Below, piece by piece: positions 28,321 to 31,496 of a stretch of DNA of 31,496 nucleotides. This stretch comes from a virus (taxonomy: Duplodnaviria > Heunggongvirae > Uroviricota > Caudoviricetes), in IMG/VR virus record IMGVR_UViG_643348547_000005, positions 1 through 31,496 of that record. One strand, written 5' to 3'. Under the pieces are notes generated by a model. That model saw nothing but the letters and a program-made list of their open reading frames with translations. It ran no database searches and was not told where the DNA came from. The position numbers and the translations under genes were made by a program. Each line of letters starts with the position of its first letter. Position 1 is the first letter of the stretch.

Positions 28321-28811
28321 CTGTTGTAGTGGTCAAGTAATATTGGCCACGGTTTTACAGTAAAAACGGTATCTGTTCTCTGATTCTTCCGGCGTCAACC
28401 CACCGTTGTAATGGTGAGGCCTGACGCTATTGTAATAATTCAGGATATAACCGCTAATTTGTTGCCGGGCCTCGTCCTTGCCTACGTAACCATCCGTCGG
28501 CACCCATTCTGTTTTCAGACTGCGGAAGAAGCGTTCCATAGGACTGTTATCCCAGCAGTTTCCCCGTCGGCTGACACTTTGCTTTATCCTGTAACGCCAG
28601 AGAAGCTGTTGATATTTCAGTCCTGTATACTGACTTCCCTGGTCGCTATGGAACATGACGTCCCGCGGCTGACCACGCACCTCATACGCCATCCGCAAGG
28701 CACTGCTTATCAGTGCAGTATCGGCATTCGCTGACAGGCTCCAGCCGATAACCCTGCGGGCAAAAAGATCCATGACGACCGCCAGATAGCACCAGCGATT
28801 TCCTGCCCAGA
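28321..28811 (-). mobile_element. 3' part of an IS3-family element (not IS629) forming the 3' exon of intron copy 2; outer end approximate
   Basis: Minus-strand reading after the intron: [24 protein letters not shown]…HSDQGSQY…[19 protein letters not shown]…, an IS3-family OrfB C-terminal region clearly different from IS629 OrfB. Confidence 0.6.
28333..28811 (-). CDS. IS3-family OrfB transposase, 3' exon (in frame with the IS629 orfB 5' exon across intron copy 2)
   Basis: DDE core motifs D…D (HSDQGSQY) … E ([18 protein letters not shown]); the frame is continuous with exon 1 after conceptual intron removal (g + tc = Val). Confidence 0.65.
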
Positions 28812-31081
28812 GTAGAGTAAGAGGCAGGGCGTAGTCGGACTATTTCCCTGCCTCTCCTCCCCGAACCGGACGTGCACCTTTCAGCGCATCCGGCTCTCCA
28901 TTTAAATGCTGGCGAACGCCATTGCCACTTCTGTAAAGCGCGATGTATACGTGTTTCTGGTCTCCGTCCTCAGATAGGGATTACCTTCGGGTAGCCGCCA
29001 GCGGAACAGCTTCTTGCCTTGCCCCACCAACCGGTACAGTATTTCGCCGCTGAGCTTGCCGTGATTGGTTTTACCAAATAAAACCCACGTTTTGCTCTGA
29101 CCCGGTTTCGGTGATTTACACCACCACCTCATCAGGGAAGCGATACCTGTACGGTATTTGCGGGCCAGCCAGTGAGCCAGCTTCCAGAACACGACACGGT
29201 CGATATAACTGAAGACTTTGGCCTTAAAATCAACGAACTGATAGAACATGGCCCAGCCTTTCAGTTTTCGGTTGAGTTGTTCAGCCATATCGACTTTGCT
29301 TTCACTGTAGTTGCCTGATAACAGTGCTGTCAGCGATGCGGCGAAGTTTCTGGCTTTCTCCTGCGGGATCGTTGAGACCACTCGCATCTCGCCATAACGA
29401 CTGCGTTTGCGAATGATCCTGTGCCCCAGAAAGATAAAGCCGTCATTAACATGGGTGATTTTAGTCTTATCCATGTTCAGCCTGAGTTTCAGACTGCCTT
29501 CGAGCACACCCCGACACTCCTCCCTGATGGCTTCCGCCTGTGCTTTGGTGCCTTTGACGATGAGGACAAAATCATCGGCATAGCGGCAGTACGCCACCGC
29601 GGGTTTCCACTGCCAGTTTTCTCTGACCGCCGTACTTCGGCCCCGTTGGATACTGTTATTCCAGTACCACCGATCTTTTCTGGCTTTCCCGCTCAGGTAG
29701 CGCTCATGCAGGTATTGATCGAACTCATTCAGCATGATGTTCGATAATAGCGGCGATATAACACCGCCCTGTGGCACACCTTCACTGGCCGCCCGAAAGA
29801 GACCGACATCGATATGTCCCGCCTTGATGGTTTTCCACAGCAGAGTCATGAAACGTGCGTCACTGATCCTGCGGCGTACAGCCTTCATCAGCAGTCGATG
29901 ATGTACGGTGTCGAAGTAACTGGACAGGTCGCCTTCAATCACCCAGCGTCCCCGGGTTTCACCGCAGTCTGTGAGCTGTAATTTCACCGTGCGGATCGCG
30001 TGGTGGACACTGCGCTCAGGCCGGAAGCCATATGAGAGCGTATGAAAATCACTCTCCCATATCGGCTCCATCGCCATCAGCATGGCCCGCTGAACAATAC
30101 GATCCCGCAACGCGGGGATACCCAGTGGTCGCAGTTTGCCGTTGCTTTTAGGGATGTAAACCCGTCTGGCGGGCAAGGGCTGGTAGTGGCCTGAGAGTAA
30201 TTCATCCCTGAGGATTTGCAGCTCAACAGCCAGTCTGGCCTGTAGCATTGTTTTGTTCACGCCATCAACGCCGGGGGTATGGGCCCCCTTTGATGAAAGC
30301 GTGATCCGCGCCGCTTCAGCCAGCCATTCTGGTTGTGTTATTAGACGCAGCAGCCGTTGAATCCGTAGGGACGGATCGGTGGCTGCCCATGTGGCAAGCT
30401 TGCGTTGCATTTCGCTGATTATCAAAGGTCTTCACCTCGTTAGGTCAGTTAATTCACGTCGCAAACACATTCAAACTGCTTCCCTTCGCCATGTAATGGG
30501 CTTTCCCCATCGCGGACTACTACGGAAGCTCCGCCAGCCAGCGCGTCATCGGAGCCATGCCCCCTTAACATCCGTCGCTGACCTTCCCCGGTTTACCTGC
30601 CTGGACTCAGGCATACTGAGGAGGCTGCCCGTCGCACTCTTTATCCTTGCTTGCCGCAAGTTGGCAGAAGTCAGCAACGCAAGCGTGATAGACGCTGCTG
30701 CCCCGGTGTTTCGCATACATGTCAAAACACCTTCGACCGGCAGTGCTTACGTATCACTGCCAGTTCCTCCTGCACGGCCTGTCAGATCACGTAGGCCGTG
30801 GTGACGTTTTCAACCCACAGAGGCGGATTAACGGGTTCATGTTCTTCAGCCTTTCAGTACTTAACCTTGAGGATCATCTCGGCTTAGTGATCTCGCCTCA
30901 ATCCCCGTTGTCAGCGGGTTACATCACCCTGCGGGCATGCCGCAGGTCACTGCCGCTCAGGTTCTCCACCGTCACACCCGGTGGGATTGTTGGGTTTCTC
31001 ATCGTGAGTTACCGGTTCAATATTCCAGACAGACTCGCGGTTCATTTAAGCATCCATGCCCGCCCTGAACTCCGGGCACAC
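28812..31081 (-). mobile_element. group II intron, copy 2 (inverted)
   Basis: Coordinates mirror copy 1 (sum 34126); encodes an identical 507-aa RT/maturase; same GTGTG 5' end (revcomp at 31077..31081) and domain V (28863..28896). Confidence 0.85.
28902..30425 (-). CDS. group II intron-encoded RT/maturase (copy 2)
   Basis: Translation identical to the 3701..5224 protein, including YADDFV. Confidence 0.9.
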
Positions 31082-31496
31082 CGTAAGTAAAATCAGCCAC
31101 CCACAGCTGGTCAGGTCGTTCTGCCACGAACTGACGGTTTACGCGGTCGCCTGCGGCAACGGCTTTCCGGCTGATGGTCGTACGGACCTTTTTACCCCGG
31201 AGAACACCGGCAAGTCCCATAACCGCCATGAGACGTGCCACAGTGCATCTGGCCACTCTGATACCTTCCCGTAACAACTGACGCCAGACTTTACGCACAC
31301 CGTATACCTTGTGATTTTCATCGTATACGCGCTGTATCTCTTTCTTCAGCCAGTCATCGCGCTGCGCACGGGCACTGCGTTTATCCGGATGATGTCGCTG
31401 TTGCTGACAGTGGTAATACGTTGACGGGGCAATATGCAGTTCGCTGCATAGCGGTCCGACCCCGTACTGCTCACGCAGCTTATCCAGCAGTGGCAT
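31082..31496 (-). CDS. IS629 OrfB 5' exon, copy 2 (partial; gene start at window edge, orfA lies beyond the window)
   Basis: Translation identical to 2627..3044 apart from the first Met, which is cut by the window end. Confidence 0.8.

Follow-up and report, generated by a model that had tools for sequence, protein, structure and literature searches.

Why does a group II intron in a prophage of Escherichia coli lie between the halves of two different insertion sequences (ISs)? The question is raised by a stretch of 31,496 nucleotides (IMG/VR record IMGVR_UViG_643348547_000005, positions 1 to 31,496), referred to here in its whole length as the window, whose source strain is E. coli IAI39 (CU928164.2 / NC_011750). 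The window holds two copies of the intron E.c.I4. Copy 1 is surrounded by IS629 on both sides, whereas copy 2 has IS629 on its 5' side and, on its 3' side, the right part of another IS3-family element, an ISEc31-like IS. The chimera around copy 2 is most probably the recombinant joint of a homologous recombination between two E.c.I4 copies lodged in two IS3-family elements, which would have inverted about 0.4-0.5 Mb of the chromosome.

The chimeric element around the second intron copy

The features on which the argument depends are the following:

2250..5829, plus strand: complete IS629 (1310 bp without the intron) holding E.c.I4 copy 1 (3045-5314, published name E.c.I4-14)
27978..28340, plus strand: prophage gene gpFI for DNA-packaging protein FI, truncated to 120 codons; matches positions 1-109 of the 131 in the Pfam profile Packaging_FI (E = 6.6e-38)
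28325..28811, minus strand: 3' exon of copy 2, the right 487 nt of an ISEc31-like IS3-family element (1258 bp in full), from the intron site to the right inverted repeat; 0 mismatches to the intact element of strain CE10
28812..31081, minus strand: group II intron E.c.I4 copy 2, published name E.c.I4-15 (NC_011750 1584588-1586857), which starts with GUGUG and ends with UAC
28902..30425, minus strand: intron-encoded protein, reverse transcriptase/maturase, 507 codons; Pfam RVT_1 and GIIM, NCBIfam TIGR04416
31082..31496, minus strand: 5' exon of copy 2, IS629 orfB up to the intron site; 0 mismatches to 2630-3044; runs past the window end

Both intron copies (3045-5314 on the plus strand and 28812-31081 on the minus strand) measure 2270 nt and show 0 mismatches to each other. 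The exons 5' of them (2630-3044 and 31496-31082) are also identical over 415 nt, and a repeat search of the window returned the two regions as one inverted repeat of 2738 nt. Their coordinates coincide with those listed in Table S3 of Leclercq and Cordaux (2012, PLoS One 7:e52268, PMC3522654) for E.c.I4-14 (NC_011750 1558821-1561090, plus strand) and E.c.I4-15 (1584588-1586857, minus strand), which identifies both copies with the named elements. The intron boundaries, GTGTGCCCGG at the 5' end and ...CTCTAC at the 3' end, show the conserved 5' GUGYG and 3' AY, and domain V/VI was recognised by Rfam RF00029 at 28812-28898 (minus strand) and 5228-5314 (plus strand) with 64.9 bits against a gathering score of 40.

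The intron protein of each copy matches RVT_1 (E = 1.5e-34) and GIIM (E = 1.3e-10) in Pfam and TIGR04416 in NCBIfam (340.9 bits, cut-off 300). No HNH or endonuclease domain was found in it by the Pfam search, and the E.c.I4 protein has been described as a class A open reading frame (ORF) without the DNA-binding/endonuclease (D/En) region (PMC3552965). An identical protein is present in more than 21,000 blocks of the searched collection.

Regarding copy 1, the earlier note made on this DNA had proposed that removal of 3045-5314 restores an intact IS629, and this was borne out. The remaining sequence of 2250-5829 is 1310 bp long, has TGAACCGCCCCGGG... at either end, and contains two ORFs with a -1 frameshift signal, the ALIL pseudoknot RF01497 (120.2 bits in Rfam). 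An identical sequence is labelled 'IS3-like element IS629 family transposase' by the Prokaryotic Genome Annotation Pipeline (PGAP). The same pseudoknot is found at 31425-31496 in the 5' exon of copy 2, where it is cut by the window end.

Around copy 2 the situation is different. On its 5' side, the note had expected the IS629 exon of copy 1 over at least 415 bp, and the base-level comparison gave 0 mismatches in 415 nt. Outside the window, this IS629 part continues to the left inverted repeat of IS629, making 795 nt in total and ending at the equivalent of window coordinate 31876 (IAI39 locus L006); all 795 nt are identical to copy 1 and to the IS629 located beside cvrA in CE10. On the 3' side, the two copies differ from the first base past the intron (copy 1 reads TCAGCACATGG..., copy 2 TCTGGGCAGG...). 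Positions 28325-28811 match, with 100% identity, the right part of an IS of 1258 bp. This IS occurs intact in CE10 and in many other E. coli genomes, and it carries its own orfA and its own 5' part of orfB. Copies 96-98% identical to this segment are named 'ISEc31 family' by PGAP, and the IS on the 3' side of copy 2 is called ISEc31 in PMC3522654.

IS629 and the ISEc31-like IS showed no significant DNA similarity by blastn, and their terminal sequences are also different (TGTAGTGG... and TGAACCGCC..., respectively). The view that the 3' exon encodes a different IS3-family OrfB is thus confirmed, and the halves are not parts of a single natural IS, since the second IS is intact in CE10 with an unrelated 5' half. 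Only the start of the foreign segment, which had been placed at 28321, had to be moved: the outer end of the inverted repeat is at 28325, giving 487 nt up to 28811.

As a whole, the chimera is composed of the left 795 nt of the cvrA-proximal IS629, one intron, and the right 487 nt of the ISEc31 in gpFI, with a total length of 3552 bp. Its left 795 nt are IS629 only and its right end is the ISEc31-like inverted repeat, and the target-site duplications at its ends are unmatched, with ACA at the ISEc31 end and CTG at the IS629 end. The identity of the flanking IS changes exactly at the intron boundaries, to the base, though the two ISs share no DNA similarity. The truncated gpFI takes its final 16 nt from the IS end. 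On the other side, the IS629 end is followed in IAI39 by CTG, a fragment of a leucine-rich repeat (LRR) pseudogene, and then cvrA, ldcA, and emtA.

Parental sites and the origin of the joint

The sister strain CE10 (NC_017646.1), which is O7:K1 like IAI39, carries the orthologous prophage beside rspB, at the Qin site. Window positions 1-28811 are colinear with CE10 from 1,867,912 down to 1,833,311, and the differences over this stretch are the intron in copy 1 and a few additional ISs in CE10. The alignment stops exactly at 28811, which corresponds to the intron site in an intact, intron-less ISEc31-like element. This element splits gpFI of CE10 at the same nucleotide as in the window, and the remaining part of gpFI and the tail genes come next.

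On the other flank, the 6464 nt that follow the chimera on its right match the IS629-cvrA side of CE10 with 100% identity; in CE10, an intact, intron-less IS629 splits the LRR pseudogene between dadX and cvrA. AR_0013 and AF57 also have an annotated intact, intron-less IS629 between dadX and cvrA, and N32 has the same IS629-cvrA junction with 100% identity. Each flank of the chimera therefore equals one parent, as seen in CE10, N32, AR_0013, and AF57. The target-site duplications follow the same pattern: in CE10, ACA is found on both sides of ISEc31 and CTG on both sides of IS629, so that the ACA of the chimera is that of its ISEc31 parent and the CTG that of its IS629 parent. The parental ISs of CE10 are on opposite strands at 1.376 and 1.833 Mb, 457 kb apart, and, given these opposite strands, a single inversion yields the order and orientation observed in IAI39.

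It should be noted that CE10 holds two copies of the late-gene block (577-599 kb and 1,813-1,868 kb), with identical protein accessions from portal to tail tip and with an ISEc31-like element at the same gpFI position in each. A model with two inversions passing through the late genes at 0.586 Mb was ruled out, since the true orthologue is beside rspB and one inversion is enough. The prophage was also considered to be Rac because of the PGAP label 'xisR', which was discarded since the CE10 orthologue at 1.812-1.872 Mb adjoins rspB.

The proposed series of events would begin in an IAI39 ancestor with the ISEc31-like element in gpFI of the lambdoid prophage and IS629 in the LRR pseudogene between dadX and cvrA, inverted relative to each other and about 0.4-0.5 Mb apart, which is the arrangement seen in the four relatives. 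E.c.I4 would then have retrohomed into both ISs during a recent burst in IAI39 (15 copies), both of them offering conserved D(F/I)TY codons that would be recognised by the exon-binding site loops EBS1 and EBS2 of the intron. Finally, a crossover inside the 2270-bp identical intron would have inverted the intervening segment. While the parental arrangement and the joint can be read directly in the genomes, we infer that the intron occupied both sites and that a crossover took place.

Two joints would be produced in this way. One of them corresponds to the joint found, which runs from the rspB side through integrase ... capsid, the N-terminal part of gpFI, ISEc31 3', intron, IS629 5', and LRR fragment to cvrA and ldcA. 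The reciprocal one is predicted to run from the tail genes through the C-terminal part of gpFI, ISEc31 5', intron, IS629 3', and LRR fragment to dadX. Its expected place is some 0.4-0.5 Mb further right, with the intron on the plus strand, for which E.c.I4-18 (1,957,302-1,959,571, listed in a '33 kbp prophage') and E.c.I4-19 (2,077,903-2,080,172) are candidates and E.c.I4-16 and E.c.I4-17 additional options.

The contexts of E.c.I4 in other strains were counted among 5,426 complete E. coli genomes. Uniform IS629/E.c.I4/IS629 copies are present in 1153 genomes and uniform ISEc31/E.c.I4/ISEc31-like copies in 181 (for example, at loci L003 and L016). Chimeras of the forward type found in the window (IS629-5'/ISEc31-3') are present in 213 genomes and those of the reciprocal type in 13, nine of them in full. 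Strain EC1 (NZ_CP058574.1, 804-815 kb) carries both reciprocal chimeras in inverted orientation, 4.4 kb apart, and the duplications of their halves match (ACA/ACA for IS629 and GAA/GAA for ISEc31); judged from its sequence, this pair is the signature of an inversion through the intron. In strain 500010 both chimera types are on opposite strands, 3.1 Mb apart, and the agreement is partial, with the ISEc31 halves sharing CTT. EC1 is the sole clean reciprocal example among the strains compared (EC1, 500010, and AR_0013).

Concerning the excess of the forward type, an old locus near the sucrose-utilisation and ynfE-like region (L005, EC31, 5100-6000) holds an IS629-like-5'/ISEc31-like-3' chimera beside an IS1414 fragment. 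Its left junction, between the IS1414 fragment and the IS629-like end, is common to about 210 complete genomes, and a subset of 20 genomes of this type has an ISKpn26 fragment at the right end. The excess (213 versus 13) thus seems to be largely one inherited locus, although the overlap of these approximately 210 genomes with the 213 was not checked, and the idea of a mechanistic bias to the IS629-5'/ISEc31-3' type was dropped for this reason.

The intron-protein sample comprised ten further loci carrying the same protein. At locus L012 (GCA_964039655.1, OZ038901.1 927671-943194) the intron, at 6345-8614, has an IS911-like 5' exon (...GGTGATGTGACCTATA) and an IS629-like 3' exon that is 92.75% identical to IS629. 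Another locus, L003 (E. coli MS 21-1, 5243-8770), carries an ISEc31-like element with E.c.I4 whose exons are uniform but whose duplications (GAA and CAA) do not match. A fragment of lom borders this element on one side, and on the other lies the end of what seems to be a complete gpFI, which points to a loss of the tail genes through another IS- or intron-mediated event.

The evidence gathered agrees with the reading given in the earlier note, that the intron homed at the equivalent site in two IS3-family elements and that the exons were then swapped by recombination through the intron. It includes the uniform intron-bearing copies of both IS629 and ISEc31, the switch exactly at the intron boundaries, the intact parents in sister strains, and the reciprocal pair of EC1. 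The recombination itself is supported, but its partner is the IS629 beside cvrA and not copy 1 of the window, and the joint is the breakpoint of a large rearrangement, with no local swap. An inversion between copies 1 and 2 of the window was ruled out as the origin, as both copies would be chimeric, and copy 1 is a uniform IS629.

On the other hand, several points weigh against a single crossover between two intron-bearing ISs. The reciprocal joint of IAI39 is a prediction, the sequence seen being that of the window and 10 kb beyond it. Moreover, Table S2 of PMC3522654 flags only one chimeric host IS among the 15 copies of IAI39, and the reciprocal one has either been overlooked there or since been lost. 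The relatives are without the intron at either parental site, and its former presence at both is deduced. As all the sequences involved are identical, the crossover point is not mappable to the intron rather than to a later event. Besides, the forward and reciprocal chimeras of AR_0013 share no duplications, and the IS629 halves of strain 500010 differ (CAG and GAG), mismatches which indicate that some histories are more complex than one crossover.

Further IS-mediated recombination is seen in the IAI39 lineage. One case is the site of copy 1, where the IS629 (2250-5829) has no target-site duplication (its flanks are TTC and CTG). At this site, CE10 and N32 have an intron-less IS629 variant about 95% identical, with 34 mismatches in the 5' part and 25 in the 3' exon plus flank, and IAI39, AF57, and AR_0013 have the canonical IS629 with the intron. 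This difference indicates that the intron was gained together with a replacement of the whole IS, by gene conversion, and not by simple retrohoming into the resident IS. The other case concerns AF57 (L027) and AR_0013 (L028), in which the whole prophage is deleted between the IS629 of the exonuclease region and the IS629 of the pin gene, leaving one intron-bearing IS629 between exo' and pin' (locus positions 6751-10330).

Elsewhere in the window there are matches to RNA families, which are ordinary features. The cspA thermoregulator RNA is matched at 15645-16037 (158.8 bits) and 18547-18932 (112.8 bits), and the sok antitoxin RNA at 9444-9615 (104.1 bits); by colinearity with CE10, they lie among the cold-shock genes cspB, cspF, and cspI and near hokD of a Qin-type prophage. 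Two neighbouring ORFs of 340 and 260 codons at 12733-14534 (minus strand) lie, also by colinearity, at the place where the prophage antiterminator gene of CE10 is interrupted by an IS100 (IS21 family, istA/istB).

Site recognition, the hybrid reading frame and rival explanations

The host sites of E.c.I4 all share the motif G-A-Y-N-T-N-A-C-N-T-A-Y-R/TC, in which the slash marks the intron position. It encodes the D(F/I/V)TY residues in the region of the first catalytic aspartate of the transposase. Two loops of the intron, assigned by their complementarity to the exon, are candidates for the recognition of this site:

30746..30751, minus strand: candidate EBS1, CGUAAG, intron positions 331-336, in the 9-nt loop of a 10-bp hairpin
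30889..30894, minus strand: candidate EBS2, GAGAUC, intron positions 188-193, in an 11-nt hairpin loop

The candidate EBS1 forms six of six pairs with the last six bases of the IS629 5' exon (CUUACG) and four of six with the ISEc31 site, with a mismatch at -1. The candidate EBS2 forms six of six pairs, two of them G-U, with positions -13 to -8 of IS629 (GAUUUU) and five of six with ISEc31. This pairing suggests that CGUAAG acts as EBS1 and GAGAUC as EBS2, with IS629 as the home site that fits the intron best. Retromobility is indicated indirectly by the 15 near-identical copies in IAI39 (PMC3522654) and by the identity of the two window copies.

When the exons of copy 2 are joined, an uninterrupted frame of 297 codons is obtained (...LWVADFTYV/WAGNRW...ANIT, followed by the stop codon). 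The OrfB proteins of IS629 and the second IS are 27% identical by BLASTP, with WVADFTYV aligned to WCGDITYI; in both ISs, then, the intron splits the homologous codon after its first base. Hence, the claim of a joint at the homologous codon with an in-frame hybrid was upheld; the joint is in frame because the intron always occupies the same codon phase of homologous transposase genes. The joined protein of 297 residues matches the IS3 transposase model NF033516 over the catalytic part with 310 bits, and its rve domain crosses the joint.

The predicted spliced junction of copy 2 is ...GATTTTACTTACG/TCTGGGCAGG.... The chimera does not differ from copy 1 in its intron, in the intron-binding sites IBS1 and IBS2 (part of the IS629 5' exon), or at the +1 base, and should therefore splice as well as copy 1 does. 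A fold of the hybrid transposase is plausible from its sequence. However, the left end of the element is that of IS629 and its right end that of ISEc31, so that no single transposase would be expected to act on both and the element is probably immobile. As an IS it is most likely dead, no more than a scar left by the rearrangement. The hybrid transposase proposed in the earlier note can therefore be kept as an in-frame ORF, but a working IS is unlikely with these unmatched ends.

Other explanations of the joint have to be weighed against the recombination between two intron copies. In one of them, the E.c.I4 ribonucleoprotein derived from IS629 would have reverse-spliced only partly into the ISEc31 of gpFI, being joined to the 3' exon only; during repair, the intron or its complementary DNA (cDNA) would have recombined with an intron-bearing IS629, and the ISEc31 of gpFI would never have held a full intron with its own 5' exon. 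Incomplete reverse splicing is plausible with the poorer pairing of the candidate EBS1 at the ISEc31 site (four of six, including the -1 mismatch, versus six of six in IS629). The intron protein is without an endonuclease domain, and the chimera has the direction predicted by this route, with a donor-type 5' exon and a target-type 3' exon.

Nevertheless, complete ISEc31/intron/ISEc31 copies are common (the 181 genomes mentioned above), which shows that full retrohoming into the ISEc31 site works. Abortive retrohoming is also unable to make the reciprocal chimeras, which exist and pair perfectly in EC1, the forward excess that it could account for seems to be largely that of one inherited locus, and an intact chromosome would still require the joining of the other two ends. 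This route is considered unlikely. A related possibility, the co-conversion of the 5' exon during retrohoming, was ruled out since the IS629 part reaches its own end and the chromosomal flank of a separate IS629. Quite improbable, too, is the wider proposition that the self-splicing intron shuffled exons to give a working hybrid IS3 transposase, or else that such joints are made preferentially by abortive retrohoming into poorly matched IS3 sites. In the exon-shuffling form, the hybrid may unite the DNA-binding part and the first catalytic Asp of IS629 with the rest of the DDE core from ISEc31.

It is very doubtful that the joint is an artefact of the 2009 Sanger assembly of IAI39, misjoined across a 2.3-3.5-kb repeat with 15 identical intron copies so as to give a false chimera and a false inversion. 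It is true that the repeat exceeds the Sanger read length and that its copies are identical; furthermore, no other complete genome in the collection has the same joint to gpFI, and the truncated gpFI protein is recorded from one contig only. However, the IAI39 genome is finished as a single 5.13-Mb contig, chimeras of this kind are present in many complete genomes that were assembled independently, and a consistent misjoin at two loci would be required.

A preexisting intron-less IS629/ISEc31 hybrid, possibly a functional new IS into which the intron homed later, would fit the match of the 297-residue product to NF033516 with the rve domain across the joint, and the wording 'Host IS is a chimeric IS629/ISEc31' in PMC3522654 allows such a reading. 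Yet an IS629 5' exon directly adjacent to an ISEc31 3' exon had no match in the 5,426 complete E. coli genomes: both halves were covered in 12 records, and the 10 listed of these 12 have them about 700-900 bp apart, as two pieces. There is no DNA similarity between the ISs to guide a crossover, and the switch is nonetheless exactly at the intron boundaries. The ends of the element are unrelated (TGAACCGCCCCGGG... and TGTAGTGGTCAAGTAA...), the flanking duplications are unmatched, and either flank equals a separate parental IS in the relatives. An origin of this kind is hardly credible.

Published record and known systems

Part of this picture is not new. E.c.I4 has been described as site-specific, entering the transposase genes of IS629, IS911, ISEc16, and ISEc31 at defined positions, with 15 copies in IAI39, and the entry on E.c.I4-15 in Table S2 states 'same prophage than E.c.I4-14. 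Host IS is a chimeric IS629/ISEc31' (PMC3522654). In the discussion of the same work, the tandems of intron and IS are considered good substrates for ectopic recombination. The homing into several ISs and the chimera around copy 2 were thus already published in 2012, and the finding is a rediscovery of a table note. The origin of the chimera is not given in PMC3522654, and what is added here are its two parental sites, the unmatched duplications, and the likely inversion of about 0.4-0.5 Mb.

As for its meaning, by homing to one conserved codon in several IS families a mobile intron gives otherwise unrelated elements 2.3 kb of shared identity, and the chromosome additional substrates for inversions and deletions. 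In IAI39, the inversion probably flipped about 0.4-0.5 Mb around the replication terminus, separating the head genes of the prophage from its tail genes. In annotation, it explains why the two IS3 transposase fragments that flank one ltrA gene can belong to different ISs. The case is an ordinary by-product of repeated mobile DNA, of which it is a clean and well-documented example, and its importance hardly goes beyond bookkeeping. Only an active hybrid transposase, made from the spliced message, would turn it into an interesting natural example of a group II intron shuffling exons.

Regarding the known systems, E.c.I4-15 of IAI39 is the same object as copy 2 (NC_011750 1584588-1586857, minus strand, equal to window 28812-31081). 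E.c.I4-3a, in the SHI-1 island of E. coli 55989, is also the same intron between two IS3-family halves, noted as 'chimeric IS629/IS911' in Table S2 of PMC3522654. It is known from this table note, and it differs from the IAI39 chimera in its partner, which is IS911 and not ISEc31, and in its strain and context. The chimeras of EC1 share both ISs with that of IAI39 and have the same intron, with 4 mismatches in its 2270 nt, and the forward one is 99.8% identical to that of the window. However, the inversion in EC1 is small and local, it is found in a pathogenicity island beside papI, and both of its products are seen, whereas the inversion proposed for IAI39 would span about 0.4-0.5 Mb.

Repeated IS elements have a general role in inversions and deletions, and ectopic recombination between copies of group II introns is reportedly a source of genome instability in Wolbachia (Leclercq, Giraud and Cordaux 2011, Mol Biol Evol 28:685, as cited in PMC3522654). 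The principle is shared with IAI39, as dispersed identical copies of a mobile element act as portable homology for RecA-type recombination. The case of IAI39 differs from that of Wolbachia in that the intron copies interrupt two host genes that are not homologous, both at the same codon phase, and the product is an in-frame gene fusion.

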